From positions 46,264 through 110,263 of the forward strand of contig JAUSCZ010000017.1 in NCBI GenBank assembly GCA_030674475.1: 64,000 nucleotides of DNA, in the 5' to 3' direction. The notes under the pieces were generated by a model. That model made no database searches. It saw nothing but the letters and a program-made list of their open reading frames with translations, and was not told the origin of the DNA. Position 1 is the stretch's first letter, and every line of letters starts with the position of its first letter. Source of the stretch: Candidatus Omnitrophota bacterium. GTDB lineage: Bacteria; Omnitrophota; Gorgyraeia; Gygaellales; UBA12090. Below are positions 31,109 to 48,615 of the stretch, one piece after another. The translations under genes were made by a program, and so were the position numbers.

Positions 31109-31112
31109 GCTT

Positions 31113-31832: not shown

Positions 31833-31834
31833 CT

Positions 31835-34296: not shown

Positions 34297-35297
34297 ATAT
34301 TTTTCTTGATATTCTCTATGATGCTTTGTTCATCCAGCTTGTTTAACGCGTGCAAATGCTCCCTGTTGCCAATATCAAAAACATACGCGTCGTTAAAACC
34401 CATTCTTTTCAATCGGGTATTGAGGCTATAGTTATCGATTACGCTTGAAACCAGGCTATCTATCCCGCCTTTATTGATAAAACCTTCTTCGAGAGTTATA
34501 ACACATTCATATTTTCGCAAAACTTTCGCAAAGAATCTCTCATTCAACGGCTTTAATAGAAAAACATCGATAACTCCAATTTTTTCTCTATCAAATGCGC
34601 CTGCCGCTTTTATGGCTTTATGGGTCATATATCCAGTCGAAACCAGGCATATCTTTTTACCTTTTCGTATCTGCGAAAAACCATCCTCTATCCTTATCTT
34701 ATCTGTTTCCGAATAAATCCGTGGCAAAGGCTTACCGTCAAGTCTTATATACTTTGGCCTTTTTACCTTTATCGAATATTCGACAAACTTACCTGACAAA
34801 ACCCAGTCGCTAGGCGAAAATACCATAATATTCGGCAAAACCCGCATTATGGTAATATCCTCAAGGCAATGATGCGTAGGGCCGGAGACATCATAACTCA
34901 AGCCGGCGCCTACGCCAATTAAGTTTATGTTTATCTCTTTCAGCTGAGAGTGCAGGGAAAGGTTAATCCGTATCTGCTCGTATGCCCTCATTGTCAGAAA
35001 CGGGGCTATCGCATAGGCATAAACTGTAAAGCCTTCAAGGGCAAGACCCGTAGATACATTGATAAGGTTCTGCTCGGCAATGCCGACGTTTATAAACCTG
35101 TCGCTGAATTTTTTCCTTAAATTGTCGAGTTTAGGAGAACCGAAATCCGCGCAGAGGAAGAAAATATTTCTATCCTTATGCATAAGATTAAAAATATTTT
35201 CGATAAAGACATCCCTCATATTGTTTATTTCGGTCTTCATTCTAACTCCGAAATTATGGTATCGACTTCTTCCGGGCTTAAATTTTTGATGTGGCAT
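34293..35297 (-). CDS. Transketolase, C-terminal (pyrimidine-binding) subunit
   Basis: FINVGIAEQNLINVSTGLALEG motif of the split transketolase B subunit. Confidence 0.8.
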   Translation of the reverse strand: MPHQKFKPGRSRYHNFGVRMKTEINNMRDVFIENIFNLMHKDRNIFFLCADFGSPKLDNLRKKFSDRFINVGIAEQNLINVSTGLALEGFTVYAYAIAPFLTMRAYEQIRINLSLHSQLKEININLIGVGAGLSYDVSGPTHHCLEDITIMRVLPNIMVFSPSDWVLSGKFVEYSIKVKRPKYIRLDGKPLPRIYSETDKIRIEDGFSQIRKGKKICLVSTGYMTHKAIKAAGAFDREKIGVIDVFLLKPLNERFFAKVLRKYECVITLEEGFINKGGIDSLVSSVIDNYSLNTRLKRMGFNDAYVFDIGNREHLHALNKLDEQSIIENIKKNI

Positions 35298-36061
35298 AGC
35301 GGATCTGTTTCAAGGCGCCGAACACCCTTGCCTTTTACGGTATCGGCGATTAATAATTTAGGCTTACCGTTATTTTTCGCTTTAAGGCGTTTTAAGGAAG
35401 TATGTAATTTATCCATCTGGTGCCCATTAACACGTTCTACTTCCCACTTAAAAACCTTGAATTTCTCGCCAAGCGGCTCAAGATCCAAGATGTTCCGACA
35501 ATAATCCAGCATGCATATTTTATTATTATCAATAATAACGATAAGGTTGTCTAAATTATGTTCGCCGGCAAACATTACTGCCTCCCATACAGAACCCTCG
35601 TACAACTCGCCGTCTCCCAGCAAAACAAACACTTTTTCATTTCTTTTCTTCCTTTTTAATGCCAGAGAAATTCCACAGGCAACCCCCAAGCCGTGGCCTA
35701 AAGAACCGTTAATTGTTTCAAAGCCGGGAATAATGGCATCCGGAATCCCCCCTAAAATTGAACCTGCCTTGCAAACTCCTCCCAGTTCCTCTTTAGGAAA
35801 ATACCCCAAATCCGCAAGCACGGGGTAAAACGATATTGCGCCGTGACCTTTGCTGATAATAAACCTATCCCTTTTTTCCCATTTTATATCCCGGGAGTTA
35901 AACCTTACAATTTTTCCGTAGTATAATACCGTAAATATTTCAACCGCCGATAGCGAAGAGGCAAGTCTCGTCTCAGGAGCAGTTTTATGTATTTTTAAAG
36001 TCTCTCTCCGCACCCATAAAGCCTTCCGATCAAGGAAATCGTATATTTTCTTGGATTTCAT
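35237..36061 (-). CDS. Transketolase, N-terminal (TPP-binding) subunit
   Basis: SKGHGAISFYP...GSLGHGLGVACG TPP-binding motifs. Confidence 0.8.
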   Translation of the reverse strand: MKSKKIYDFLDRKALWVRRETLKIHKTAPETRLASSLSAVEIFTVLYYGKIVRFNSRDIKWEKRDRFIISKGHGAISFYPVLADLGYFPKEELGGVCKAGSILGGIPDAIIPGFETINGSLGHGLGVACGISLALKRKKRNEKVFVLLGDGELYEGSVWEAVMFAGEHNLDNLIVIIDNNKICMLDYCRNILDLEPLGEKFKVFKWEVERVNGHQMDKLHTSLKRLKAKNNGKPKLLIADTVKGKGVRRLETDPLCHIKNLSPEEVDTIISELE

Positions 36062-36069
36062 CAGCGTCT

Positions 36070-37014
36070 TTAGACGTTTCCGTATTTGTTGTTTGAGATT
36101 ATCTTGTATGCCTTAATGAGCTCCCTTATCCCAAATTCAAGCGAAAGAATCGGCTTAAACCCGGTTTTTTCAATCTTTTCATTGGAAACAATATAATCCC
36201 GCTTATCCGGGTCCTCGCCTATAGGAGACTCCAGGTATACAAAATCAGCTATCTGTTCTTTTATCTTTGCGCAAAGCTCAAGCTTTGAGAGATTCGCATT
36301 GGACAAGCCGACGTTATACGGTTCATCTTTCACTGTATCAAAATTATCTATCGCATGGATAAATGCCCTGGCCACATCGCGTATATGAATATAGTTCCTT
36401 TTAAAATGCCCTTCAAAAACCACCACAAAACGGTCATTAACAGCACGGTAAGTAAAATCATTTACCAATAAATCTATCCGCATCCTGGGGGACACGCCAA
36501 AAACAGTAGCCAACCTAAAACTTACGGAGTTCTTCCTTTCCAACACAATTTTCTCAGCTTCCATTTTTACCCTGCCGTATAAAGTAATCGGATTCAGGGG
36601 CGTCTCTTCCGTGCAATAGATACCCTTCTGACCAATACCGTATCCACTATTGGTAGTCGGTATAATTATCCTTTGCTCCTTAGACGCCAGCTTGGTAAGC
36701 ATGGCTATGGCGTCCCGGTTAACGGTAACGGCAGCCGTCTTATCCCTATTGCATAAAGGAGCTCCCACCAATGCTGCCAGTGGAATAATATAATCCACTT
36801 CTTTTAAAAGCGGTTTTACGATACCCTCATCGCGGACATCTCCCCGAACTACTTTAAATTTATCATAGGCGCAACAATCAAGCAAAGAATTCTGACTATA
36901 CATAAAATTATCTACGACAGTGACATCATGCTTTAGTTCTAAAAGTTTAGGGACGAGAACTGAACCTATGTAACCCGCGCCGCCTGTAATCAATATTCGC
37001 ATTTTAGAAGCCAT
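36070..37014 (-). CDS. NAD-dependent epimerase/dehydratase
   Basis: ILITGGAGYIGSVL motif. Confidence 0.75.
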   Translation of the reverse strand: MASKMRILITGGAGYIGSVLVPKLLELKHDVTVVDNFMYSQNSLLDCCAYDKFKVVRGDVRDEGIVKPLLKEVDYIIPLAALVGAPLCNRDKTAAVTVNRDAIAMLTKLASKEQRIIIPTTNSGYGIGQKGIYCTEETPLNPITLYGRVKMEAEKIVLERKNSVSFRLATVFGVSPRMRIDLLVNDFTYRAVNDRFVVVFEGHFKRNYIHIRDVARAFIHAIDNFDTVKDEPYNVGLSNANLSKLELCAKIKEQIADFVYLESPIGEDPDKRDYIVSNEKIEKTGFKPILSLEFGIRELIKAYKIISNNKYGNV

Positions 37015-37050
37015 ACAATAACATTGTTATATTTACTATTTCCGCCGGTT

Positions 37051-38157
37051 TTACCTGTTACTTAATATTTTCACTATTCCTGCCGCGGGTATTTTCTCCA
37101 GCCCTACATTTACATATGCCTCACGACTACTTAATTCATCTCCAATAATACCGTAAGACTGCCAAAGAAAATAACTAGCCGGCTTATCCCATTTTCCATA
37201 TTTTTTATCTGTAACTAACCTTAAGGTCTTTATTGCGTTCTGATAATCCTTGATATCATAATATAGTTTTCCAAGGAAAAACAGTACGTCATCGTAATAT
37301 TTACTTTCAGGGAATTCCTTCAATAAGGCCGCATAAGACTGTAATGCTAAGTCCATACGGTAAGCTAAATGGTAATTTCTGGCTTTATAAAATAATGCTG
37401 AATCCGAACTACCTTTAAGGTGCCTGAGCGCAGACCGAATGTATAAATTTTGATAAATATATACGAATTTATTTCCGAATATTTTAAAATAGAAATCCAT
37501 AAGATGATCAAAGATGTGACTTTGTTTCAAGATAGGCGTGGACCTGCGGGGTTCGCCCATAAGAGGCAAGACACGTCGATAGATCGCAATAATGTCTTTA
37601 TACTCCATCCCTGAGTATTGTTTTAATGCGGAAATTTTCTTTATCTCATCTAATAATTCTGGCTGGGCAGTCAAATCATCCAATGAATACATGTCACCTC
37701 TGAAATCAACAAAAACAGTATTCAATGCCGTATCAAATACACACCATTTGTTATTCAGGAAAACTTCATTCAAGGTATGCGGAGAAATACCATTTTTATC
37801 TAACAGCATTGCGTATCGGCTTGGGATACCTGCTATTCCCAAAAGCAGATTTAATGTTCTTGCCTGAAAATCGCAATATGCCTCAGCGTATATTAAAGAT
37901 TCTAATGGTTTACATGAATACGGCGTTCCTTGAAGAAATTCATTATTGACCACATAATTAAACAAAGATAAGGACTTTTCGTAATCAGTCCTATACCCAT
38001 TTGTTTCTTGGGCAACTATGGTGTTTAAAATTAATCTTTGATAGGCATGATATCGTAACCTATACGGAAGGAATAATGAAATTACTGGCGACAACAGTAT
38101 TAAAACAGTTGCTATTATAAGAAAAAGTCTGCAAATAAATTTTAAACGCTTATGCAT
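37051..38157 (-). CDS. Transglutaminase-like domain membrane protein with TPR-like C-terminus (paralogue of 10586-11629)
   Basis: N-terminal TM helix. AYCDFQARTLNLLLGIAGIPSRYAML...HTLNEVFLNNKWCVFD aligns with the paralogue's CDYQAKVFNVLLSKKGIPSRYAML...HTISEVYFHNRWVVFD. Confidence 0.5.
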   Translation of the reverse strand: MHKRLKFICRLFLIIATVLILLSPVISLFLPYRLRYHAYQRLILNTIVAQETNGYRTDYEKSLSLFNYVVNNEFLQGTPYSCKPLESLIYAEAYCDFQARTLNLLLGIAGIPSRYAMLLDKNGISPHTLNEVFLNNKWCVFDTALNTVFVDFRGDMYSLDDLTAQPELLDEIKKISALKQYSGMEYKDIIAIYRRVLPLMGEPRRSTPILKQSHIFDHLMDFYFKIFGNKFVYIYQNLYIRSALRHLKGSSDSALFYKARNYHLAYRMDLALQSYAALLKEFPESKYYDDVLFFLGKLYYDIKDYQNAIKTLRLVTDKKYGKWDKPASYFLWQSYGIIGDELSSREAYVNVGLEKIPAAGIVKILSNR

Positions 38158-38171
38158 TGTTATAAATATGC

Positions 38172-38528
38172 TTACGGCGAAGTTTCAACATTCTGATAAG
38201 CTAATAACATAGTCTTATATGTTTCCAACTCCTCTTTGAGCCTTTCGTATTCGCGGGTTTTCCAGTCAAGGAACTGCTGGATAAGCTGAAATTTTATCCT
38301 AATTCCCTGAGGGGTGAGCAGATACATATAGCTTAACTTATTCTTGGCATTCTTGAAGTTTTTTGCCTCTATTATGCCCTTGTCAATGAGGGCGTTGAGG
38401 AAGTAGTTAATCTTGCCCAGGCTTATTTTGAGTTTCAGGGCCAGGTCGCGCTGGGTTATGGCGGGATTTTGCTCTAACTCTTTGATAACAGAGAGGATTT
38501 TTTCGTGGTGCAATATGTCGGATTTCAT
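38172..38528 (-). CDS. MarR-type winged-helix transcriptional regulator (EPS-locus-associated family), copy 1
   Basis: MKSDILHHEKILSVIKELEQNPAITQRDLALKLKISLGKINYFLNALIDKGII is the wHTH. The true start is cat at 38526-38528, and the longer ORF-track start is an extension. 90% identical to copy 2. Confidence 0.65.
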   Translation of the reverse strand: MKSDILHHEKILSVIKELEQNPAITQRDLALKLKISLGKINYFLNALIDKGIIEAKNFKNAKNKLSYMYLLTPQGIRIKFQLIQQFLDWKTREYERLKEELETYKTMLLAYQNVETSP

Positions 38529-38574
38529 AGAAAAACTATGGGTCGATGGTCTATGGTTCATCTTTTTAAAATTC

Positions 38575-38958
38575 TTAAAGCAACCGTATAATCCCTTTTT
38601 CAAAATTAATCGTCAACTTGAAATTCTTCAAAAAGTCTAAGCCTAAAAGTCCATCTACAAAACCCTCTTCAGGTAAATCATGGCAAGCGACTTCTAAATT
38701 CTTCATTGTCTTACCTAACGCTTTAATACTTTTTAAACTTACCACTGGAACAATTTCAATTCCACTCCCGGTTACAATACGAGTACGGGAAGGGGAACCT
38801 CCCGGATCGCAGCCAATAGCTTCAGCTGCCTCAAAGGGAATCATAGTTCGCGAACAACCCGTGTCTAACGCTAAACGCAAGGTCCGTTCGGCATTCTTCC
38901 TAATTGTGCCCTCTATAATGATTATGGGAAATTTATGGTTAAAAGAAGTCTTTGACAT
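38575..38958 (-). CDS. Retropepsin-like (clan AA) aspartic protease
   Basis: LALDTGCSRTMIP contains the D-T/S-G catalytic motif in a retropepsin-like context; 127 aa. Confidence 0.7.
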   Translation of the reverse strand: MSKTSFNHKFPIIIIEGTIRKNAERTLRLALDTGCSRTMIPFEAAEAIGCDPGGSPSRTRIVTGSGIEIVPVVSLKSIKALGKTMKNLEVACHDLPEEGFVDGLLGLDFLKNFKLTINFEKGIIRLL

Positions 38959-39188
38959 TAAAACATTACCACCAAATCCTTTGGTATGGGCCCGGTATAA
39001 TCGATAGCAAGCGGTTCTTTATATTTCATCTGCTCTCTGTATATAGTGTCTCTCTTTTTACTGTGAGCAATTACCGCCCCCTTGCTTAACCGGTTCATCT
39101 TATCAAACTCATAGTTCGCCAGCAAGATCCACTCTTTAGGAAATCTCTTCCTAATGCTTATTAAGCTTTCCACTCTACTTTTTACCAT
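38958..39188 (-). CDS. Small partner protein of the retropepsin-like protease (hypothetical)
   Basis: 76-aa ORF translationally coupled (ATGA-type overlap) immediately upstream of the protease. Confidence 0.35.
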   Translation of the reverse strand: MVKSRVESLISIRKRFPKEWILLANYEFDKMNRLSKGAVIAHSKKRDTIYREQMKYKEPLAIDYTGPIPKDLVVMF

Positions 39189-39221
39189 TTTTCTTTACCT
39201 CCTGATTTAAGTTAAGAAAGT

Positions 39222-39330
39222 ATTTTGCTCTAACTCTTTGATAACAGAGAGGATTTTTTCGTGGTTTAAGATGTCGGATTTCATGGGAAAATCAAAGGTC
39301 GATAGTTTATAGTCAATAGTCAATGGTCCG
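39222..39330. repeat. Cassette-junction repeat, copy (partial: regulator-5'-end homologue + heptamer tract, no hairpin)
   Basis: ttttgctctaactctttgataacagagaggatttt...atgtcggatttcat followed by gtcgatagtttatagtcaatagtcaatggtcc. Homologous to 38440-38565, 39923-40106, 42530-42665, 46133-46262 and 47168-47305. Confidence 0.7.
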
Positions 39331-39431
39331 GAAAAAAATTACTTCTTTAAATAATTTCGAAAGGCGTGCAGCATTTTTGAGATGTCTTCACAACACTTAT
39401 AAAATAAATCAAATTCTGTAGATTTTCTGTG

Positions 39432-39710
39432 TCATCTGTATGTTAACGGATATTGCTCCGGATTAGCTAAGATTTCTGCGGATAAGTCTATATCTAACTT
39501 TGGCCAGTATAGATGATGATTATGTATCAACTTTACGTTAGTTATTGACGAAATATTAGCGTCTTTAAACCAAGGATACTCACTGAAAGATAAGAAATAT
39601 TCTCTATCTTTCAGGAAAATCCAAAATCCATGTTCTGAAATATTAGTTATTTCTGGCCTTAAAATGTTCTTTCCATTCTTTAATGATTTCATTCCTATGC
39701 CTTTCCACAA
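39432..39710 (-). CDS. DUF2442 family protein (TA-like pair with DUF4160)
   Basis: YPWF...LYWPKLDIDL motif pattern. Confidence 0.6.
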   Translation of the reverse strand: MWKGIGMKSLKNGKNILRPEITNISEHGFWIFLKDREYFLSFSEYPWFKDANISSITNVKLIHNHHLYWPKLDIDLSAEILANPEQYPLTYR

Positions 39711-39891
39711 TTTTTTGTAAAGTTCTTAGCTGCCTTTTAGAAAAACCAGTGTAATTTACCAATTCAACGGCTGGCTCCAACCAGAATTTCGCTTCCCCAT
39801 CCGGAGAAATAATATGAACATGCATCTTCATTTCTTCTTTAGAGAAAAAATGAAACCTGTAATTCCCTATTTTAAATACTGTCGGGCTCAA
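39643..39891 (-). CDS. DUF4160 family protein
   Basis: YRFHFFSKEE..MHVHI motif pattern; overlaps the downstream DUF2442 gene. Confidence 0.6.
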   Translation of the reverse strand: MSPTVFKIGNYRFHFFSKEEMKMHVHIISPDGEAKFWLEPAVELVNYTGFSKRQLRTLQKIVERHRNEIIKEWKEHFKARNN

Positions 39892-39907
39892 AGTTTACTA
39901 TCCCTCA

Positions 39908-40054
39908 TTAAACGATTTTATCCTTGTAAGTGCGATAAATCGCACCGCTACCGCGAATTTTCCGAATAAGTTTGCGCTGGGTTATAGCGGGGTTTTGCTC
40001 TAACTCTTTGATAGCAGAGAGGATCTTGTCGTGGTTTAATATGTCGGTCTTCAT
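39908..40054 (-). CDS. Truncated divergent paralogue of the MarR-EPS regulator (~48-aa mini-ORF) embedded in junction repeat
   Basis: MKTDILNHDKILSAIKELEQNPAITQRKLIRKIRGSGAIYRTYKDKIV. The first ~30 aa match the regulator N-terminus. The divergent tail LIRKIRGSGAIYRTYK is shared with the copies at 46133-46262 and 47168-47305. Confidence 0.4.
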   Translation of the reverse strand: MKTDILNHDKILSAIKELEQNPAITQRKLIRKIRGSGAIYRTYKDKIV

Positions 40055-40106
40055 GGGAAAATCAAGGGTCGATAGTCTATAGTCGATAGTCAATAGTCAA
40101 TGGTCC
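39923..40106. repeat. Cassette-junction repeat, full copy (hairpin GTGCGATAAATCGCAC + regulator-5' homologue + (GTCNATR)5)
   Basis: The hairpin at 39930-39945 has a 6-bp stem and a TAAA loop. Then comes cgctaccgcgaattttccgaataagtttgcgctgggtta..ttttgctctaactctttgata.cagagaggat. Then the heptamer tract gtcgata gtctata gtcgata gtcaata gtcaatg. Confidence 0.7.
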
Positions 40107-40173
40107 AGAAAAAAATTACTTCTTTAAATAATTCCGAAAGGCATGTAGCATTTTTGAGATGTCTTCGTAACGC

Positions 40174-40473
40174 TTATAAAAAAATGCCTTTAATTTTGTT
40201 TTTGGTTCCCGCTTTAGCGGGATAACACAGGCTAATATTGATCTTTTCATATAATGTTTCAGGGGCAATGTCAGCGCCATTTGGCCAGGCAATTGTACCG
40301 CCTTCAATTTTTGCTTTTTTGAAGAATTGTAAATTCTTTAATGGCTTAAAAATATATCCTTTCCTAATGTACTCTATAAAATTCACATCTCCACCTTTAC
40401 CATCATCAAACATAATATAATAAACATAATTATTTTTATACTTAATTGTTTTTACTTCATTCATATCCCACAT
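40174..40473 (-). CDS. DUF2442 family protein (second copy)
   Basis: [17 protein letters not shown]-terminal motif. Confidence 0.55.
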
Positions 40474-40475
40474 AT

Positions 40476-40620
40476 CTCACCTCAAGTTAAAGGGATAATT
40501 TCTCTTATTGTTTTGCCTGCTCTAGCTAATTCCCAATCTTCTTTCAATTCTGTGGAATGGAGATCTATCCATTCCCTGAATAATGTTACCTCTTTAGATA
40601 GTTGCGAATTGTTACCACCT
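40476..40620 (-). pseudogene. DUF4160 gene remnant (C-terminal fragment only)
   Basis: The minus-strand translation ...FREWIDLHSTELKEDWELARAGKTIREIIPLT* resembles a DUF4160 C-terminus. No N-terminus or start codon is present. Confidence 0.35.
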
Positions 40621-40771
40621 CATTCAAAGAACCTATTGATATCTGGATAAAACGCGATAAATCTGTATCGGAATTCCTGCCTTCACCTTCAGCGATATTT
40701 AAACTGATAGAAACTGCGGCTCTGTTTCACTGGCGAACTTGACTGATTCTTGCCATCCCGTTTTTTCTCTA

Positions 40772-41170
40772 TCCTGCTAAAGCAGGTCTTAGCAGTTTTT
40801 TAATTTTTGTAATAAATTTTCTGGCGTCTTCAAGAACACTTTCCGCCTCTTCGGCTGAACCTGTGTAAAATGGCTCATAATCTCCGTCCTCTCTTAAGTC
40901 CTTATCGCGTGAGAGTATTTAGTAATATTCTCTTGGAAGTATACCGGTTTTAACAAAATGGAGGCTAATCATTGTCTGTAAACCAGAATGTGTTTTAGCG
41001 TAAAATCCTTTTGAAGCCAATAGAGCCATTCCAGCGTGATATACCATATAATACCCTCTTGAGATAGCATCCTCATACATCTTACTTTCATAAAGCTTCT
41101 GCGCGGCCTGAAGCTTGCGCTCCGCCTTCTCTATAAGTTTCGTTATTCTTAACCTTAGTTTCTCATCCAT
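40772..41170 (-). pseudogene. HEPN-domain toxin gene interrupted by in-frame TAA (HEPN of MNT/HEPN pair)
   Basis: ORF 40919-41170 encodes ...YYMVYHAGMALLAS...LPREYY, then TAA (40919-40921). The same frame continues for 49 codons as ILSRDKDLREDGDYEPFYTGSAEEAESVLEDARKFI..., which is the canonical HEPN C-terminal R-x-x-x-DY region. Confidence 0.6.
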
Positions 41171-41490
41171 AATATTTTACCTTCATTCTCTATATTCTTC
41201 ATAAATGGCGTCTCTAAGCCCTTTAAGTATGCGTATTGGCTAATATCGTAAACCTTTGTAGATATAGGCCGGCCGTATTTTAAGACAAGGGAAGCGGCGA
41301 TTCTGGTAATCTTTTTCAAAAAGTCTAACCTATTGCCCGAAGCAACTATCAAAAAATCTATATCAGATTCTTTGTTTAATTGATCCCTGCTGGCAGAGCC
41401 AAAAAGAATTACCGCTTGAATTTTTCTTTTGTATTTTTTTACTACTTGCCGGACAAAACTATCAATTTCCTTTTCATCTTGTTTGTTCAT
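41155..41490 (-). CDS. Minimal nucleotidyltransferase (MNT) antitoxin-type protein
   Basis: LFGSASRDQLNKESDIDFLIV is the GS..D.D nucleotidyltransferase motif. Confidence 0.75.
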   Translation of the reverse strand: MNKQDEKEIDSFVRQVVKKYKRKIQAVILFGSASRDQLNKESDIDFLIVASGNRLDFLKKITRIAASLVLKYGRPISTKVYDISQYAYLKGLETPFMKNIENEGKILWMRN

Positions 41491-41597
41491 CTGTTCCCTT
41501 GCCTATCAGGAATCAATGTTGTCAATAAGTCCTCACTGAATTATCCATTTTTGGGTATTTGTTCACGGTCTGAACGCATACTTACAGAAAATTTATA

Positions 41598-41616
41598 TTA
41601 TCATATTTTATGATAA
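41598..41616. promoter_or_regulatory. Palindromic putative operator TTATCATAtttTATGATAA upstream of MNT/HEPN operon
   Basis: Perfect 8-bp inverted arms with a 3-bp spacer, ~110 bp upstream of the MNT start at 41490. Confidence 0.3.
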
Positions 41617-41689
41617 AATCAAGGGTTTTTTAGCTTTACTTGTTACTTGTAACAGTGAACGGAGGAAACTTGCAATTTTTCCCCTCACC

Positions 41690-41755
41690 TAACCCCTCCC
41701 CGCCTCCCCTTGGTAAGGGGAGGATTTCTTACCTCTCCCACAAGGGGAGAGGGAA
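41690..41755. repeat. GC-rich tandem hairpins (CCTCCCC-ttggtaa-GGGGAGG; CCTCTCCC-acaa-GGGAGAGG)
   Basis: Two adjacent stem-loops in a 350-bp non-coding gap. Related to the motif at 50189-50224. Confidence 0.5.
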
Positions 41756-41845
41756 TAGCGGGAGAAGATTTTCCCCTGCTTGGTGAGAAGCTGTAAAAAA
41801 ATACCTAATTATGGCGTAAGTCAGGCTTATTTTGTATTCAAATTT

Positions 41846-42130
41846 TTATTTCCTAATCGTCCAAAAATCAGCAGCTTGGGTTTCTAAATATTCGTAGGGC
41901 ATAGTGAAGTAGCCGCATTTACCCCAAGTCTTGCCCCAGGAATTTCGGATTAAGAAACATTTTTGTTTTTGGTTGTATCCGACTGCTAACACCGCATGTC
42001 CGCCCACCGGCCGTTCATTCTTTTTAGGCATAGGGACAATGCCGGTGCGTTTGACTTTTTCGCTCTCAAAGGATTCATAAACTGTAAAACCGAAGGTAAA
42101 AGGATAACCATCTGCCAGACAAACGAGCAT
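41846..42130 (-). pseudogene. Papain-like (C1) cysteine peptidase, C-terminal fragment
   Basis: GGHAVLAVGY...IRNSWGKTWGKCGYFTMPYEY carries the His/Asn half of the catalytic triad. The N-terminal Cys-containing half is absent. Confidence 0.55.
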
Positions 42131-42149
42131 CTCGGTTACACTCCTTCAT

Positions 42150-42245
42150 CTTCTCCATAATTCTTCCTGTTGTTTCTCCATTAATTTTCCTATCTCATCA
42201 CTATGGTCATAATAACAAGAAAGGGCATCGTAACTTACGTAATCT
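42150..42245 (-). pseudogene. DUF433 gene remnant (C-terminal fragment)
   Basis: Minus-strand translation YVSYDALSCYYDHSDEIGKLMEKQQEELWRR* aligns to the C-terminus of the DUF433 protein at 46815-47153 (SAIYDALSYYYDHADEIERLMEKNREDQWKK). Confidence 0.4.
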
Positions 42246-42628
42246 TAGTACGTTGCGTCCACATTGCTTAATTTAGGTAAAACTTCGGCATTTTGATAAG
42301 CTAATAACATGCTCCTGTAGGTTTCCATTTCTACCTCAAGCCTTTCGTATTCGCGGGTTTTCCAGTCAAGGAACTGCTGGATAAGCTGAAATTTTATCCG
42401 GATTCCCTCTGGCGTTAACATATACATATAGCTCAACTTATTCTTGGCATTCTTGAAGTTTTTGGCCTCTATTATACCCTTGTCAATGAGGGCGTTGAGG
42501 AAGTAGTTAATCTTGCCCAGGCTTATTTTGAGCTTCAGGGCCAGGTCGCGCTGGGTTATGATGGGGTTTTGCTCTAATTCTTTGATAACAGAGAGGATTT
42601 TTTCGTGGTTTAATATGTCGGGTTTCAT
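42245..42628 (-). CDS. MarR-type winged-helix transcriptional regulator (EPS-locus-associated family), copy 2
   Basis: MKPDILNHEKILSVIKELEQNPIITQRDLALKLKISLGKINYFLNALIDKGII...; near-identical to copy 1. Confidence 0.65.
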   Translation of the reverse strand: MKPDILNHEKILSVIKELEQNPIITQRDLALKLKISLGKINYFLNALIDKGIIEAKNFKNAKNKLSYMYMLTPEGIRIKFQLIQQFLDWKTREYERLEVEMETYRSMLLAYQNAEVLPKLSNVDATY

Positions 42629-42694
42629 AGAAAAACTATGGGTCGATAGTCGATGGTTCAGGAACCGTTTTTTAAGAATTTTCGCGCGAATTTG

Positions 42695-43120
42695 CTATCC
42701 ATCCCTATGGGACAGTAACATTAAAAATTGCCGCGGAGTTAAAATCGATACCCCAGACCAGACTTTTAGCTGTAAAATATGAGGATCTCCAGTAATAATG
42801 TATTTAGCTGCAGAAGCTAAAGCACAAGCCAAAACCTTGTCATCGCTTGGATCATCCTTAACCACCGAGTCTATTTTTATATCTGGATATAACGCTGCAA
42901 TATCTGTAATTCCGGCAAATAAATCTTCGCAAGATATATTATGTTTTTTCAAGCGGGAGAAGAATTTTGGCCGTTTTAAAACATCTTTTAACTCTTCCAG
43001 AAAAGCAGGTGTCATGCAAAGAGTAAAAAGCCCCTTTTCTACCGCCATTAATAATTCATGGGAAGGCCCTTACCAAAGAAGCGCGGAAATAAGCACATTT
43101 GTATCTATAACGATTTTCAT
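42695..43120 (-). pseudogene. PIN-domain toxin (TIGR00305-like) interrupted by in-frame TAA
   Basis: From ATG (cat 43118-43120) the sequence reads MKIVIDTNVLISALLW, then TAA (43070-43072), then GPSHELLMAVEKGLF...ITGDPHIL...ILTPRQFL. The ATGA overlap with the upstream AbrB-type antitoxin is retained. Confidence 0.6.
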
Positions 43121-43347
43121 CTTTTTTCTTTACGATAGGCGTGGACCTCTTTCACTATTTCTTTTAAAGATAAAGGCTTTTCTTTAATACGATCAGCTAT
43201 TTCAGAAAGCTTAGAAGGATTAATCTTTTTTACAATAAATGTATCCCCGTCTACAAACCAAGCAATTTTATCAGAAGGCCTAAAAATAGATTGCGCGATT
43301 TTAGGGAGAACTAACGTTCCATTCTTATCAATTTTCAGTGTTTGCAT
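43117..43347 (-). CDS. AbrB/MazE/SpoVT-type antitoxin
   Basis: MQTLKIDKNGTLVLPKIAQSIF...GDTFIVKK looped-hinge helix pattern. Confidence 0.65.
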   Translation of the reverse strand: MQTLKIDKNGTLVLPKIAQSIFRPSDKIAWFVDGDTFIVKKINPSKLSEIADRIKEKPLSLKEIVKEVHAYRKEKR

Positions 43348-43673
43348 TTGTCATCTCCTCCTATATTAACAGTCAATACTTCTCATTGTTACTCGCCTCC
43401 ACAGGTGGTCGCGCTGGATTATGGCAAGAGCGTCTATCTCAACTAACGCTTCAAAACTTCCATATTCGGCATGAAGATGCGGCGGCGCTACATATCTCAG
43501 ACATGGATAATTTCCCTCTTTAAATTAGGAAAAATCTCTTTTTGATTGAACATCAAACCTTCTCCAGCATGCGAATTCATTTTAGGGACATCTGTTGAGC
43601 GAAAAATTGAAGTACTGCTAAGACAGACTTCCGCCTTAAACCCGGAAGGCATCGTTGTATTAATATTTTAAAA

Positions 43674-44519
43674 TTATCGTTTGACAAAATTTTCCAGAAA
43701 TCCGATAATTTTTGGATAAAGAGGCAAGGCCTCTTGAATAAACTTCTCTAAGCGGCCGTAAAGAATCTCCAAATACTCATGGGCAAGGATATTTCTTAAA
43801 TTAGCGAACTTGGACAGCCCTCTTGCTTCTGTTTCGCTTAAACCCGCTAAAAATCCGAAATTAAACAGCGCCTCTTCATAAGTCCGCGGCATTAGCTTTT
43901 TCTCGGAAGCTAAGGTTATTTTAGCGATGTCTATAGTAGCGTTGAGAATATTCTCTGCCCATCTTTCAATGCTACGCCTTTTCATTTTGTCTTTCTGATA
44001 ATCGTCAAAAGTCACCATTTGACAGCTGGGAGTCTCTTTAATCTCTAAATCTAAAAATTGCAGCCTTACTAACAATCTTTCCTTTTGCTCCACGGTAAGC
44101 GACCGGGCTTGCTTATAAATCCGATAAAAATCTTCAGAAAATTCCAAGAAATCTTCTGTTTCCGTGCTCGCCTTTAAATAAGTTTCCAAGTGCAATCTTT
44201 CATCCTTAATCACTAAAGGAATTCCAGTCTTAATTACGCAGGAAACTAAAGACGCCGGCGCGTAATTTAAACAAACCAAATCAATATCTTTATGAATAAT
44301 CCCGGAAATATCCGAGTAAACTTCACTTTCATTTTCATAATAAATTTTATTTTCCGGAGCTTCTGACTTTTGAGGCACGAAATAAACCGCTACATCAAAA
44401 TCTGATTCCGCCGTCTGCCGGCCTTCGGAATAAGAACCAAAAACAAAAGCCATTAAAACTTCTTTTCTTTTTAGAAAATACTCTTTTAATGATTCTATTG
44501 TATCTTTTAAATTATCCAT
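43674..44519 (-). CDS. Fused nucleotidyltransferase (MNT) - HEPN (DUF86/HepT-like) protein
   Basis: N-terminus FGSYSEGRQTAESDFDVAV (MNT); C-terminus LRNILAHEY (R-x4-H HEPN motif). 281 aa in one polypeptide. Confidence 0.6.
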   Translation of the reverse strand: MDNLKDTIESLKEYFLKRKEVLMAFVFGSYSEGRQTAESDFDVAVYFVPQKSEAPENKIYYENESEVYSDISGIIHKDIDLVCLNYAPASLVSCVIKTGIPLVIKDERLHLETYLKASTETEDFLEFSEDFYRIYKQARSLTVEQKERLLVRLQFLDLEIKETPSCQMVTFDDYQKDKMKRRSIERWAENILNATIDIAKITLASEKKLMPRTYEEALFNFGFLAGLSETEARGLSKFANLRNILAHEYLEILYGRLEKFIQEALPLYPKIIGFLENFVKR

Positions 44520-44595
44520 TTTGAAATGTCTTCACAGCGCTTATAAAGCAAATCGGGCACAGGGAGAATCGCTGGTTAAAAGTGCAGCTTCAACA

Positions 44596-44826
44596 TTACA
44601 CCTTCTCCAATATGCGCACTTCTTCTCCGTCCATCTGTTGCGCGGCAAATGCAAGCGCTGCCAAGACAGACTCCTTTTTTAAAGTCGGATATTCTTTCAG
44701 GATATCTTCAACCGTCATCCCGGAAGCCATACATTGGAGAATGAGCGCTACGGAAATACGCGTTCCCTTAATAATCGGCTTCCCGGAAAGAATCTCCCGG
44801 TCACAAGTTATCCATTTCTTAATCAT
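44596..44826 (-). CDS. DUF433 family protein
   Basis: ILSGKPIIKGTRISV motif typical of DUF433. Confidence 0.65.
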   Translation of the reverse strand: MIKKWITCDREILSGKPIIKGTRISVALILQCMASGMTVEDILKEYPTLKKESVLAALAFAAQQMDGEEVRILEKV

Positions 44827-45092
44827 TTTATTTTACCTCCGCGATTTGTACCAATAGTGCCTATGGAATTAAAGAAAATACCTGGTAAGCCGCAAAGCAC
44901 TTGTTCTTCTTTATTAGGGTACTGGGGTTTTCTGTCGGGATAATACAAATTCTTCCCTTTTAGGGAATTTTCTTGCTAAGGCGTATGTCTGGATTGCCCG
45001 GTCAAGCCGGGCAATGACAAAAGTGGAGTTTCACGACAGTCCCCTGACTCATTCCATACCTTTAGTTCCTCAAATTTAAAGGGCATAGGATA

Positions 45093-45130
45093 GTCGATGG
45101 TCTATGGTCTATGGTCTATGGTCTATGGTT
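45093..45130. repeat. Heptanucleotide tandem repeat (GTCNATR)5-6
   Basis: gtcgatg gtctatg gtctatg gtctatg gtctatg gttta. The same unit occurs in 2-5 copies directly upstream of each regulator/mini-ORF start (38541-38562, 39298-39329, 40064-40106, 42641-42660, 46248-46262). Confidence 0.8.
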
Positions 45131-45750
45131 TAACTTAAACTAAAATCAGTAAGCTCTTTCTTAATGATTGCATCGTCAACTTCAAATCCCTTCAGATAGT
45201 CAACCTTTTCCGTGTAGTCTATATCTTTAAAATAGCTCAGTTGCGCCCGGAATAACTTTTCATTAAATTCAGAGCCAAAGATGTGTCTGGTTTTTTTAAT
45301 AATCTTATGGATATCGTAATAGTCTTTCATTACAAAGTAAAGGTCCACATAATCTTTCCACTTCGCCCTCCGGCCTAAGGCATAAGCCTTCATTGCCGCT
45401 AAGGTTAATAAATCCGGCAGTTTTATCACCTGATCAAAATTTTTAGAAAAGCTTATCTTAAATGGATAGCAAAAAAATGTAAATCTTACTTTATGGATAA
45501 CCACTGTATATTGGCCATCTTCATCTCTTAAGACACTATCTATCTTTTTAAACTGTATAATTTTTCTTCTAATTTTCCAATTATCAAACTCTTTATCGGT
45601 AAAAAGATCGAAATCAATTGAACGGCGATGACCCGCAAAAATAGCTATGGCTGTTCCTCCCGCTAAACCAAAGTCTTTAGAAAATGACTTAACCAGCGGT
45701 AAAAGCTCCAGCTGCTCAGCGGTTAGAATCTCCGGATGAATTCTACGCAT
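45130..45750 (-). CDS. AbiEii/AbiGii-family nucleotidyltransferase toxin (type IV TA)
   Basis: GLAGGTAIAIFAGHRRSIDFDLF motif. Confidence 0.6.
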   Translation of the reverse strand: MRRIHPEILTAEQLELLPLVKSFSKDFGLAGGTAIAIFAGHRRSIDFDLFTDKEFDNWKIRRKIIQFKKIDSVLRDEDGQYTVVIHKVRFTFFCYPFKISFSKNFDQVIKLPDLLTLAAMKAYALGRRAKWKDYVDLYFVMKDYYDIHKIIKKTRHIFGSEFNEKLFRAQLSYFKDIDYTEKVDYLKGFEVDDAIIKKELTDFSLS

Positions 45751-46000
45751 ATTTCGCGAAATATAATTTGAAATAGTTTATAATTTTTAGGTCGTAATTA
45801 ACTCGTTTTTGCCGCAGCTGTTTTTTAAAAATTCTGGAAATCTTTTTAATCCCCAAGATAGAGATTAATCCCTTAAAATCGGAGAAATCTCCATAATTTA
45901 AAACAGACTCCACAATTGCCTCTTTAGAGAGGGATTTATAGTCTTTAACATACCAAATTAAATACGGTTTCTTTTTGATAAAATTAGTAAGTGTCAGCAT
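45743..46000 (-). CDS. Hypothetical small protein, putative cognate antitoxin of AbiEii-like toxin
   Basis: 85-aa ORF overlapping the toxin start; no family recognised. Confidence 0.3.
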   Translation of the reverse strand: MLTLTNFIKKKPYLIWYVKDYKSLSKEAIVESVLNYGDFSDFKGLISILGIKKISRIFKKQLRQKRVNYDLKIINYFKLYFAKYA

Positions 46001-46132
46001 GCTTTGATACTGGTTAGTTCTACTCTGGGCGTTGGAGGATTAATTGCCTTTCATCAGTTAAACCCAAAGTCCTGCTAACAACGGTCTGACATCTTCGTCA
46101 AGATAAAGCTTTACTTCTTCCACGGCTCTTCC

Positions 46133-46262
46133 TTGTAAGTGCGATAAATCGCACCGCTACCGCGAATTTTCCGAATAAGTTTGCGCTGGGTTAGGGCGGG
46201 GTTTTGCTCTAACTCTTTGATAACAGAGAGGATTTTCATAGAAAAACTATGGGTCGATGGCC
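46133..46262. repeat. Cassette-junction repeat copy (hairpin + regulator-5' homologue, internal deletion, 2 heptamers)
   Basis: The hairpin gtgcgataaatcgcac at 46139-46154 is followed by cgctaccgcgaattttccgaataagtttgcgctgggttagggcggggttttgctctaactctttgataacagagaggatttt, then cat and gggtcgatgg. It encodes the mini-ORF MKILSVIKELEQNPALTQRKLIRKIRGSGAIYRTYKEEPWKK. Confidence 0.7.
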
Positions 46263-46274
46263 TGGAGACTCGTA

Positions 46275-46520
46275 TTATACAGCTCCTATAGTAGTTATCT
46301 CAACCATATGATGTTTTTTACGGGCATCAGATACAATCTCTTCTATCTTCACTGCCACAGCATCCCCAATCCAGTCAGCGCCGCACTGTGAACATACGGT
46401 AGCTGGGACATCCCTTACCACTACTACCCCAAAGCCCAAGTCCGCGGTAAAAGTAGTCTTCCCGGATTTTTTAGTTCCCCCGCAGAGAGGACATCTGCTC
46501 GCGTCTGATTCAATCACCAT
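46275..46520 (-). CDS. YgiT/MqsA-type zinc-finger antitoxin-like protein
   Basis: CPLCGG...CSQCG zinc ribbon. Confidence 0.6.
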   Translation of the reverse strand: MVIESDASRCPLCGGTKKSGKTTFTADLGFGVVVVRDVPATVCSQCGADWIGDAVAVKIEEIVSDARKKHHMVEITTIGAV

Positions 46521-46524
46521 CGTC

Positions 46525-46833
46525 TCATCTCCTTGTTCTATAATCTGATTGAAAATGATCTAAATCCGGTCTATATGCGGTAACGATAAAACAGTATGTG
46601 CCCTCTGAATCAAAAGCTGCAACCACATGAAACGGCTCTTCTCTAATCCATCCCAAGAATAAAGCGCTTGGATACGGTTTATTGTGAGGGTAATCCTCTA
46701 TAATTTCTCCTGACAATAACACTTTCTTAACTGTATCCCGGAAAATTTCTCTTTCCGCCATTCTCTCAAGAGCATGTCTTTGCCATTCTATTCTACCATT
46801 TATTATCGCTATACTTAATTTTTCTCTATCCAT
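46525..46833 (-). CDS. DUF4258 family protein (putative toxin)
   Basis: WQRHALERMAEREI...EDYPHNKPYPSALFLG...FIVTAYRPD pattern. Confidence 0.55.
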   Translation of the reverse strand: MDREKLSIAIINGRIEWQRHALERMAEREIFRDTVKKVLLSGEIIEDYPHNKPYPSALFLGWIREEPFHVVAAFDSEGTYCFIVTAYRPDLDHFQSDYRTRR

Positions 46834-47153
46834 CTATATTTTCCGGGAAAAATACCTGGTAAGCCGCAAAACACTTGTTCTTTCTTCTTCCACTGATCTT
46901 CCCTGTTCTTCTCCATTAATCTTTCGATTTCATCAGCGTGATCGTAGTAATAAGAAAGGGCGTCATAAATGGCGGATAAAGAAAGATGCGGAAATTCCCT
47001 AGCTAATTCCTCAGGGAGAATTCCCTCTTTGACTATGTAAAATACAACAGACCGGACAGGAAAACGGGTGCCCTTAATTATAGGCTCCCCTCCCTGAATC
47101 CTCGGATTGTGTGTTATATAATAATGATTTACTTTCTCTATAACCTCGCTCAT
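46815..47153 (-). CDS. DUF433 family protein
   Basis: IQGGEPIIKGTRFPV motif. Confidence 0.65.
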   Translation of the reverse strand: MSEVIEKVNHYYITHNPRIQGGEPIIKGTRFPVRSVVFYIVKEGILPEELAREFPHLSLSAIYDALSYYYDHADEIERLMEKNREDQWKKKEQVFCGLPGIFPGKYRWIEKN

Positions 47154-47167
47154 TATGTCACCTCCTG

Positions 47168-47305
47168 GTGAGTGCGATAAATCGCATCGCTACCGCGGAT
47201 TTTCCGAATAAGTTTGCGCTGGGTTAGGGCGGGGTTTTGCTCTAACTCTTTGATAACAGAGAGGATTTTATCGTGGTTCAATATGCCGATTTTATGAATA
47301 TTCAT
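47168..47305. repeat. Cassette-junction repeat copy (hairpin variant + regulator-5' homologue, no heptamers)
   Basis: gtgcgataaatcgcatcgctaccgcggattttccgaataagtttgcgctgggttagggcggggttttgctctaactctttgataacagagaggatttt...; the mini-ORF ends in ...LIRKIRGSDAIYRTH. Confidence 0.7.
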
Positions 47306-47363
47306 CTGTTCAGGGCTTGAACATATATTAACAAAAGTATCGCAATTGTCAAGAGGAGAGTCT

Positions 47364-48452
47364 TTAAGATGGTATTTCCATGGACAAATCTTTTAAAGTA
47401 GCAACCTTTTTTAAGTGAGTCACCTTTTGTTTTATACCTTGATAGGCGGCAGAATTAGATTTTAGAGAAAGCAAGGAATTCTTTATTTCCTCAACTGATT
47501 CTACCTTAATGCCGGCACCGGATTTACAGATTACTCTTTCATTAGATGTCTCCAAGCCAGGGATGCTGGAGAAGAAAATCATTGGCAGGCCTTTGGCTAA
47601 GCTTTCGCTGATGGTCAGGCCGCCGGCTTTGGTGAGAACAACATCAGAAACCGACATTAGTTCATCAACATAATCAATCAAGGGGTAAATTTTAACATTC
47701 ATGAGATTTAGCTTGGTCAGGCGGTCAAAGAGCTTCTGGTTCTTGCCGCAGATAACTAATAATTGAATATCACCGGCTAAGGCCTGGACAATTTCCTCTA
47801 TGGGGCCGATGCCTACGGCTCCGGTCATAATTAAAGCGGTGAATTTTTCCGGGTCAACTCCTAACTTTTGGGCCGCTGTTTTTCTATCTGAAGGTAGATA
47901 AAATTTCTCTCTTACCGGAATGCCATAAACTTTTATTTTATCTTCTATTATTCCTTTTGTCAATAAGCAGTCTTTCACATGATCGCAGGAAGCTATGTAG
48001 GTATCCACGCCTTCTCCTATCCAGTAGGGATGCAGGGTGTAATCAGTTATAATGGTTATCAGGCGAAAAGCATATTGGGGGTATTTTTTCTTGAATATAC
48101 TAAGAACACTGCTGGTTAAAAAGTGGGTGGAAATAACAACGTCGGGTTTTTCTTTTTTTAATAGATCAACAAACGGCTGGCAAGCGAGATAATCAGAGAG
48201 GAGGCGAAAATAATTATTAGCGAAGAAGGACGATAGGCGGTAGAGAAGATACCATGCCCAGGGAAACTTGGTAATAAGGAAGATATAGCCCTTGGAATAT
48301 AAAAACTTAACCACACAGTTAGAATAGTCCAAGATGTCAATAAGCTTTAGGCTTAAGTCGAGCCGGGTTTTTTTAAGATATTCGTAGAGGGCTTCCGCGG
48401 CTTTTTGGTGGCCGGCGCCGGCGGAGGCATAGACGATAAAGACTTTCTTCAC
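47364..48452 (-). CDS. GT28-family glycosyltransferase (MGDG-synthase / UgtP-like)
   Basis: N-terminal IVYASAGAGHQKAAEAL motif typical of MGDG-synthase-like GT28 proteins, with a C-terminal GT-B domain. Confidence 0.65.
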   Translation of the reverse strand: MKKVFIVYASAGAGHQKAAEALYEYLKKTRLDLSLKLIDILDYSNCVVKFLYSKGYIFLITKFPWAWYLLYRLSSFFANNYFRLLSDYLACQPFVDLLKKEKPDVVISTHFLTSSVLSIFKKKYPQYAFRLITIITDYTLHPYWIGEGVDTYIASCDHVKDCLLTKGIIEDKIKVYGIPVREKFYLPSDRKTAAQKLGVDPEKFTALIMTGAVGIGPIEEIVQALAGDIQLLVICGKNQKLFDRLTKLNLMNVKIYPLIDYVDELMSVSDVVLTKAGGLTISESLAKGLPMIFFSSIPGLETSNERVICKSGAGIKVESVEEIKNSLLSLKSNSAAYQGIKQKVTHLKKVATLKDLSMEIPS

Positions 48453-48470: not shown

Positions 48471-48488
48471 GGTGCGATAAATCGCACC
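48471..48488. repeat. Isolated copy of junction hairpin GGTGCGATAAATCGCACC
   Basis: 7-bp stem and TAAA loop, 19 bp upstream of the GT28 start. The following ~20 bp (gctacgcgacgcgaa) are only loosely related to the junction repeat. Confidence 0.6.
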
Positions 48489-48615
48489 GCTACGCGACGC
48501 GAATAACCCAGCACTATTTTCATGCTCATTGGTATCCTGCTTTCGGCGGGGTATAACTGCTTCATTAGTTATTGATTTTTATAAATAATAATACTGGCCA
48601 TGCTCCTGGGGGGAC

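Follow-up and report, generated by a model that had tools for sequence, protein, structure and literature searches.

How did some 9 kb of toxin-antitoxin modules come to interrupt a glycan locus, and is the repeat that recurs between them the recombination site of a cassette system? The locus lies in a window of 64 kb (the whole stretch of DNA that was analysed, contig JAUSCZ010000017.1) from an Omnitrophota bacterium, where small toxin-antitoxin and defence genes are found directly upstream of the gene for a MarR_EPS regulator. An earlier note had described an integron-like array, or one like the clusters of attC sites lacking integron-integrases (CALINs), and had named serial insertion in the 5' end of the regulator gene as the alternative. 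The repeat is the regulator's own start and not an integron-type site; thus, the locus represents a variable gene-accretion hotspot and no new cassette machine. The hotspot is positioned immediately upstream of, and into the first 20-45 codons of, the regulator gene which heads the downstream glycan genes. On balance we regard it as probable that toxin-antitoxin and defence modules accrete and recombine at this hypervariable site, with the copies of the regulator start serving as portable homology.

The junction element was characterized by sequence alignment. Six copies of a common 80-185-nt element were found where the earlier note had placed them. The repeat finder returned, at the same positions in the window, five-copy families of 131 nt and 106 nt, together with a 300-nt pair (38184-38483 and 42284-42583, 90% identical) and four copies of a 25-nt hairpin segment. 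All eight junction stretches could be aligned, as the note had proposed to check. A 32-nt core, ATCCTCTCTGTTATCAAAGAGTTAGAGCAAAA, was 94-100% identical among the six regulator-bearing copies, and the core plus 21 nt was 74-100% identical. The element corresponds to the 5' region of the adjacent MarR family EPS-associated regulator gene (TIGR04176), which is present as two full genes and four truncated copies. Both full regulators passed the TIGR04176 cutoff of 88, copy 1 with 121.5 bits and copy 2 with 117.9 bits. Copy 2 was 100% identical to an NCBI protein of Candidatus Omnitrophota (P0001) and 90% identical to copy 1 at the nucleotide level. Exact-protein look-ups with P0001 and with proteins of the window gave no record. 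The sites 38440-38565 and 42530-42665 are the 5' ends of these two genes, while the truncated copies of the window comprise the first 20-36 regulator codons. Each junction consists of a leader and the shared coding segment, followed in J3, J6 and J7 (Table 1), which are three of the four truncated copies, by a 22-nt linker and a short hairpin.

A seventh copy had been reported at 45083-45130. This site (J5) shares only a 7-nt tandem array, (GACYATN)n, with the other junctions; what comes after the array is not the regulator start but the beginning of a remnant 23S_rRNA_IVP four-helix-bundle gene. The statement that every block boundary carries the element applies to six sites. That junctions fall at block boundaries at all is due to the definition of the blocks by the junction; in blocks C and D, neighbouring modules join with no junction between them. 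In a comparison of 13 full regulators the synonymous sites of the 32-nt core did not exceed the remaining gene in conservation (third-position conservation 0.83-0.89), and so gave no sign of a special constraint on the core at the DNA level.

The leaders of the copies differ. J7, at the far end of the island, has a native leader with the promoter TTGACA-16-TAATAT (47352-47325), the palindrome GTTCA-N5-TGAAC (47308-47322) and the start MNIHKIGILNHDK. All other regulator copies, including both full genes, possess a foreign leader of one to six GACYATN units followed by GACCCATAGTTTTTCTATG and the start MKSDILNHEK. The 7-nt array is confined to island junctions (15 matches in the window versus 0.46 expected). 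The arrays are located at 38546-38558, 39302-39328, 40065-40105, 42646-42658 and 45090-45130, comprise 1-6 units, and vary in copy number between junctions and between relatives. Both the non-native regulator start and the four-helix-bundle start follow such arrays directly; the repeats may be promoters, binding sites or a product of slippage. In all relatives the palindrome is found between the -10 box and the native regulator start, and within the islands further copies precede MNT-type modules. The window has two copies, at 47308-47322 and 41561-41575 (0.02 expected), and the related loci L118, L120 and L127 have three each (loci from other assemblies carry L numbers). The palindrome may be the operator of the regulator, which would tie some of the cassettes to it.

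Empty sites were found in relatives. The Hainich groundwater assemblies L123, L124 and L125 share the gene order O-antigen ligase, heptosyltransferase, ManC, heptosyltransferase, aminotransferase, GT2, epimerase, HAD phosphatase and MGDG-synthase-like glycosyltransferase with the window. In these assemblies the regulator follows 71 nt after the last of these genes, with a native-type promoter and start; L108 and L111 are alike. This uninterrupted order bears out the earlier description of an island inside a glycan locus, and the reported minus-strand orientation of all island genes was confirmed for every gene-like open reading frame (ORF) of at least 90 aa in the window. In every island lineage examined (window, L109, L110/115/116, L112, L118, L120) the terminal full regulator carries the 7-nt-repeat leader and an MKSD or MKTD start, whereas regulators without an island have the native start, which in the window stands with the native promoter on the truncated copy at the far end. 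This is the strongest pattern in the data: an island goes along with a foreign leader on the terminal regulator and, in the window, with a native start on the far truncated copy, the footprint to be expected of recombination within the shared 5' segment.

The islands of other relatives occupy the same place and contain the same modules and junction types in other orders, with 82-97% nucleotide identity between modules. In L109 the regulator is followed by a YgiT scrap, MNT-HepT (89%), a junction, the four-helix-bundle gene, an IS3 scrap, AAA_14, the AbiE pair (82%) and the glycosyltransferase (86%). L115 shows the regulator, MNT/HEPN (94%), a junction, MNT/HepT, a copy of the retropepsin pair of module A (87%) in a different place, DUF5615/DUF433 pairs and several junctions of the hairpin-bearing type. 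L118, L120 and L127 have larger arrays, of 10-15 kb or more, which contain two full regulators and as many as six copies of the junction; L121 and L122 have the same sequence as L120 (99.8%) and add no polymorphism. The cassette-level variation which the earlier note had suggested looking for is therefore clearly present, in the form of presence or absence, order and combination. The cassettes of L112 are 93-95% identical to those of the window and the adjacent core gene 81%, which suggests exchange between lineages, as far as sequence identities with glycan genes as a poor baseline can indicate.

The copies of the regulator start end at different points. In the window and its relatives truncations were found at approximately nt 62, 64, 74, 81, 89 and 101 of the gene. 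J2, which lacks the hairpin, and L113 break off after GAGCAAAA(CC), one L118 copy near nt 74 and the hairpin-bearing type after CAGCGC; the copies of L110, L115 and L116 end after CGCGAGCTTGC, and a copy in L109 continues as far as about nt 101, where the 3' end of a YgiT gene is joined to it. The alternative of serial insertion in the 5' end of the regulator gene agrees much better with the data than the integron-like array does, given the empty sites, the displaced native promoter and start and the foreign leader on full regulators. As to a single att crossover point, each of the differing end points is compatible with a core before nt 62, and none demonstrates one.

Joins between modules are likewise imprecise. 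Modules such as DUF433, MNT-HepT and AbrB/PIN in block D abut without a junction, and the MNT-HepT gene of this block is joined at ...CAAAA|ATG into a four-helix-bundle scrap. Genes are often truncated: HEPN has 83 aa versus 149 aa in L115, PIN_3 lacks its N-terminus, and the Peptidase_C1 remnant has 94 versus 246 aa. A 220-nt stretch of L118 is a patchwork of 45-50-nt scraps from three cassette starts.

From these data we infer the following pathway and order of events. The incoming DNA would consist of a regulator-start fragment and cargo, and would recombine with the chromosome within the shared 5' segment of about 65-110 nt. Each such event, a Campbell-type or homology-anchored insertion, would leave a truncated regulator start behind and rebuild an intact regulator downstream with the incoming leader. 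The resulting direct repeats could then act as portable homology for RecA-type duplication, deletion, excision and re-insertion of circles, and exchange between relatives, and illegitimate joins would account for many of the gene scraps. The reshuffled orders, the two full regulators flanking cargo and the lineage-wise homogenization of junctions described below fit rearrangement driven by direct repeats.

Several points weigh against homologous recombination as outlined here. The shared segment of 65-110 nt is short for efficient RecA recombination. Every truncation falls within one 50-nt stretch (nt 62-110 of the gene of about 380 nt) and none is shorter or longer; a site-specific core before nt 62 would likewise predict clustered end points. 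Native-type promoter copies lie inside the arrays of relatives (L120 4397 and 7909; L118 4889 and 8905) and are not predicted by simple one-way serial insertion. The 7-nt repeats beside the shared segment could be arm-type recombinase sites. Finally, recombinases were sought in 64 of the 225 kb of the contig and, in relatives, up to 10 kb to either side, so that a trans-acting integrase encoded elsewhere is compatible with the outcome.

Within this scope no recombinase was found. Pfam detected no recombinase family among the island ORFs and ten upstream ORFs (52.3-63.5 kb). The 38 kb downstream read as sugar-biosynthesis genes on inspection, and the four genes at 48.6-52.1 kb, which were outside the Pfam scan, were assigned by their L123 orthologues, which have sugar-gene domains. 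L118, L120 and L127 were free of recombinases up to a distance of 10 kb, and the contigs of L109 and L115, as fetched, had none either; the only traces of mobility in relatives were IS3, IS256-type and DDE scraps. The earlier remark that no recombinase is visible in the window thus proved correct for the 64 kb and extends to the five relatives examined.

A site-specific integrase acting in trans is the possible, though rather unlikely, alternative to homologous recombination. The units would be integrase-less and cis-mobilizable, with an attP that mimics the first ~20 codons of the regulator and supplies leader and start; this model would place the crossover core in nt 31-62 and assign the role of arm-type sites to the 7-nt repeats. 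Such tandem accretion would explain the existence of an empty site, the displacement of the native start to the far end and the invariably foreign leader of the intact regulator in island lineages. It is also favoured by the clustering of the truncations, none of which precedes nt 62 and all of which fall in a stretch of 50 nt, and by the restriction of the 7-nt repeats to junctions. However, apart from the integrase missing in the window and within 10 kb in five relatives, the junction core was absent from viral contigs and shows no extra conservation at synonymous sites, divergence points differ, many module boundaries are junction-free, and scraps abound. Furthermore, 7-nt repeats are found in front of an unrelated gene as well, that of the four-helix bundle, and the internal native-type promoter copies in relatives also speak against this model.

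More doubtful is the idea that the regulator start is a reusable docking site for very small toxin-antitoxin cassettes without integrase, which would form a class in Omnitrophota that has so far gone unrecognized. Every such cassette would bring its own replacement leader, consisting of the 7-nt array and a new start codon, and its movement would depend on a recombinase from another part of the genome or on single-strand chemistry of the type performed by the transposases discussed in the next paragraphs. If true, this would be a gene-start-targeting cassette system which is functionally parallel to integrons yet unrelated to them.

The hairpin GTGCGATTTATCGCAC occurs four times in the 64 kb, always at this locus (0.03 expected). 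Its unit consists of GTAGCG and the 7-bp stem GTGCGAT-TT-ATCGCAC. An exact-pattern scan with one genome per species matched it at more than 107 loci, often on many contigs of a bin, with 6-8 or more in single genome bins. These belong to Omnitrophota, Ratteibacteria, WOR-3, Zixibacteria, Desantisbacteria, Sumerlaeota, Elusimicrobiota, Planctomycetota, Clostridia bins and others. Copies next to these differ in the stem but keep its pairing (GTCGGAT, GTGGCAT, GTCGCAT etc.), and frequently form inverted pairs or tandems. GTAG-tagged repetitive extragenic palindromic (REP) elements have been defined as palindromic units of 20-40 nt with an unpaired GTAG tag and many copies per genome (PMC3733652). 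The hairpin agrees with this definition in tag, stem and copy number. In the Planctomycetota bin L098 a Y1 transposase gene (50-481; Y1_Tnp, PF01797, 1.8e-5) has REPs on both sides, and its homologues adjoin REPs in L102, L086 and L059 (Zixibacteriota, Aerophobetes and Ratteibacteria loci). The best NCBIfam match of the transposase was REP_Tyr_transpos with 54.7 bits, under the cutoff of 80, and JGI names relatives 'RayT' (REP-associated tyrosine transposase, RAYT). A literature search for the hairpin sequence gave no match.

The copy at 48471-48488, which had been listed as a hairpin-only boundary, exists (48472-48493) but is not part of the island. This REP upstream of the glycosyltransferase is kept in the empty-site relatives, with a compensatory change in the stem (L123 8801-8822, GTAGCGGCGCGATTTATCGCGC). 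The hairpin was also rejected as a marker of toxin-antitoxin cassettes, since at 107 loci it has ordinary housekeeping genes downstream and an orientation of 54 versus 49. Within lineages the junctions are homogenized: J3 and J6 show no difference over about 52 nt of linker and REP, and the stem reads GTGCGAT in all copies of the window and GCGCGAT in all copies of L120-L125. The hairpin is an ordinary REP that occurs throughout genomes as a substrate of RAYTs. It was absorbed into one junction subfamily and multiplied together with the latter, and does not represent the site at which the array recombines. Two origins of the linker were tested and rejected. As decayed regulator sequence the linkers of the window scored no better than shuffles, and only the L120 9537 copy keeps regulator sequence right up to the REP (17/21; 4/2000 shuffles as good). 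If the linker derived from sequence beside the REP at 48472-48493, it would be a tandem-duplication joint, but the two have just a 7-mer in common (441/5000 shuffles equal).

Capture driven by REP and RAYT, in which the hairpins would be active sites and a RAYT would move or join DNA between them and so build the array, is improbable. It draws on the RAYT genes beside GTAG-tagged REPs in four phyla, on REPs at module starts in several relatives (DUF433, MNT or DUF4160 comes next, and one REP of L115 stands directly before a native-type promoter copy), on the divergence of sequences 4-9 nt past the hairpin and on the homogenized stems. Yet only 3 of the 7 junctions of the window contain a REP, no RAYT is encoded in the window, and the 107 other loci place REPs beside housekeeping genes. 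Moreover, movement of genes by RAYTs is not known. Two observations on the REP itself may be added. The 22-nt unit GTAGCGGTGCGATTTATCGCAC (window 39930-39951, 46139-46160, 47172-47193 and 48472-48493; L001-L107) is nearly unchanged across bins of many candidate phyla. REP families are usually lineage-specific, and the spread of one unit over so many phyla is therefore unusual; a REP/RAYT family with an almost constant 22-nt unit is a by-product of this analysis. In L115 (3942-3990) one REP has a nested 18-nt palindromic insertion in its stem (GGTGC-CTGCCTACCGCAGGCAGG-CGATTTATCGCAC).

The integron-like or CALIN-like array of the earlier note, with the junction as a folded attC-type site of an IntI-type integrase, is very improbable. 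attC sites are imperfect palindromes of 60-140 nt (R''-L''...L'-R') which fold as single strands, and a complete integron has an IntI-type tyrosine recombinase beside the array, which CALINs lack. Small co-oriented cassettes, a cargo rich in toxin-antitoxin genes and a repeat between blocks had prompted the comparison. But eight junction strands, folded as single-stranded DNA, gave z values of -1.6 to +1.2 relative to shuffles, and thus folded no better on either strand; just the short REP stem and a 7-bp stem in the coding region were formed. No RYYYAAC/GTTRRRY pair (R''/R' boxes) was seen on reading the junctions. Rfam yielded nothing at gathering thresholds, and a permissive scan of the island gave one spurious sub-threshold miRNA match (gene-free 41640-41790). 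The repeat is coding sequence, the 5' fragment of a neighbouring gene, and has no attC-like palindrome. At least five differing end points were counted, the hairpin is an ordinary REP, no IntI was found in the window or in the parts of relatives searched, and several cassettes have promoter-like and ribosome-binding sequences of their own. Hardly credible, too, is an assembly artefact in which repeats joined unrelated contigs of a metagenome-assembled genome chimerically: contigs of relatives do often end inside the island (L121, L122, L068), but independent assemblies from several sites and samples contain the same kind of array and the same junction types, and the copies have diverged enough (74-97%) to assemble.

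The features of the locus are compiled in Table 1. Module assignments are based on Pfam, NCBIfam and PADLOC. The Pfam families named earlier hold: DUF433 (twice), DUF4258, YgiT, AbiEii, the MNT-HepT fusion, PIN_3, MNT, truncated HEPN, DUF2442 (twice), DUF4160, Asp_protease_2 and the Peptidase_C1 remnant.

Table 1. Features of the island and its borders in the window, listed by decreasing position
Feature	Position	Strand	Remarks
REP hairpin GTAGCGGTGCGATTTATCGCAC	48472..48493	minus	Just upstream of glycosyltransferase, outside island; conserved in empty-site relatives
MGDG-synthase-like glycosyltransferase, core flanking gene	47364..48452	minus	Pfam MGDG_synth 6.6e-29; orthologue directly before regulator in L123-L125
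Native regulator promoter TTGACA-16-TAATAT and palindrome GTTCA-N5-TGAAC	47308..47352	minus	Same layout before regulator in empty-site relatives
J7: truncated regulator with native start MNIHKIGILNHDK..., 22-nt linker, REP 47172-47193	47153..47305	minus	Stop overlaps DUF433 start codon
Module F: DUF433 46815-47153, DUF4258 46525-46833, YgiT-type zinc finger 46275-46520	46275..47153	minus	
J6: regulator start copy with codons 2-9 deleted, linker, REP 46139-46160	46111..46262	minus	
Scrap of DUF433 end/DUF5615 start after J6	46072-46134	minus	
Module E: 85-aa partner 45743-46000, AbiEii-like nucleotidyltransferase 45130-45750	45130..46000	minus	Copies 82-91% identical in L109, L118
J5: six 7-nt repeats (GACCATA type), 23S_rRNA_IVP four-helix-bundle start remnant	44946..45130	minus	Split by palindrome 44991-45018
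Block D: three modules, no junction between	42695..44826	minus	
Block D, part 1	DUF433 44596-44826; four-helix-bundle 3' scrap 44519-44554; MNT-HepT fusion 43674-44519	minus	
Block D, part 2	DUF433 3' scrap 43546-43646; AbrB-like 43117-43347; PIN_3 without N-terminus 42695-43048	minus	AbrB-like: no family match
J4: 7-nt repeats, full-length regulator copy 2 (gene 42245-42628)	42245..42665	minus	TIGR04176
Block C, mainly remnants	40174..42233	minus	
Block C, part 1	DUF433 3' scrap 42154-42233; Peptidase_C1 remnant 41846-42130; promoter-type palindrome 41561-41575	minus	
Block C, part 2	MNT 41155-41490; truncated HEPN 40919-41170; four-helix-bundle scraps 40607-40768; DUF2442 40174-40473	minus	
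J3: four-helix-bundle 3' scrap 40075-40184, six 7-nt repeats 40065-40105, truncated regulator, linker, REP 39930-39951	39908..40184	minus	
Module B: DUF4160 39643-39891, DUF2442 39432-39710	39432..39891	minus	
J2: four-helix-bundle 3' scrap 39298-39407, four 7-nt repeats, regulator start cut after ~20 codons	39222..39407	minus	
Module A: 76-aa protein 38958-39188, retropepsin-like aspartyl protease 38575-38958	38575..39188	minus	PADLOC candidate PDC-M08B
J1: 7-nt repeats, full-length regulator copy 1 (likely gene 38172-38528, start MKSDILHHEK)	38172..38558	minus	Heads downstream glycan genes

The four-helix-bundle gene is complete in L109 (9378-9734; PF05635, 1.8e-38), and scraps of its 3' end account for two further repeat families of the repeat finder. 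The palindrome that splits J5, GTCATTGCCCGGCTTGACCGGGCAATCC, has a 9-bp stem, and a similar hairpin follows a REP in L120 (~9640-9680). The region 41640-41790 contains no genes and shows the G-rich/C-rich hairpins CCTCCCCTTGGTAAGGGGAGG and CTCTCCCCTTGTGGGAGAGG, which resemble short repeats flanking several unrelated loci.

The glycan operon is variable too. The genes just downstream of the regulator differ among relatives (window 30010-38157 versus L112, L116, L120 and L123): in L112 a gene matching window 29975-31108 abuts the regulator, and L120 and L123 have radical-SAM genes there instead. A second toxin-antitoxin pair was observed at 53735-54317 of the window, composed of a Phd/YefM-like gene (54030-54317) and a ParE-like gene (53735-54040) with a promoter-like sequence of their own. 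It sits between ManC and a heptosyltransferase without junction repeat, REP or 7-nt array. In L123-L125 this pair is absent and the two flanking genes overlap by 4 nt.

The locus shows how a poorly studied, uncultured phylum builds and reshuffles an island of toxin-antitoxin and defence genes without visible mobility genes, with the start of a neighbouring gene as the recombination handle. The contrast with an integron should be useful to annotation pipelines which flag repeats combined with small co-oriented genes. Addiction-type modules and copies of the regulator promoter and palindrome in front of a surface-glycan operon may stabilize the locus or be co-regulated with it.

Several known systems resemble this locus in part. 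SXT/R391 elements accrete at the 5' end of prfC, and ICESt1, with its integrase-less cis-mobilizable elements (CIMEs), at fda. As in these systems, direct repeats derive from the end of the target gene, the native end is displaced, the element contributes the leader and first codons of the restored gene, the repeats enclose units without integrase, and relatives have an empty site. In contrast, no integrase was found here, the units measure just 0.6-2.5 kb, truncation points vary, many internal boundaries have no repeat, and native-type promoter copies recur inside the arrays of relatives. The orphan toxin-immunity arrays downstream of rhs, cdiA and maf vary between strains and probably arise by serial displacement via homologous recombination. 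They share with the island an arrangement in which each toxin/antidote module has a piece of one neighbouring gene in front of it, but the repeated fragment is here the 5' end of an unrelated downstream regulator and not the conserved part of a toxin gene. With chromosomal integrons and CALINs the island has in common tightly packed, co-oriented small cassettes, many toxin-antitoxin pairs and a repeat between groups; it differs in the lack of attC structure, boxes and IntI, in its imprecise boundaries and in a repeat made of coding sequence. GTAG REP/RAYT systems (PMC3733652) are matched by the hairpin in its unpaired GTAG tag, 7-bp stem, many copies, inverted pairs or tandems, and flanked RAYT genes. 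This likeness covers the hairpin and not the array, and unlike usual REPs the same 22-mer occurs in many phyla. Defence and toxin-antitoxin hotspots occupy a fixed site between conserved core genes. Here, too, content differs between close relatives and no obvious mobility genes are present, whereas the site is marked by repeated copies of the start of a flanking gene. The locus is thus an accretion hotspot of a known type, distinguished by these copies.

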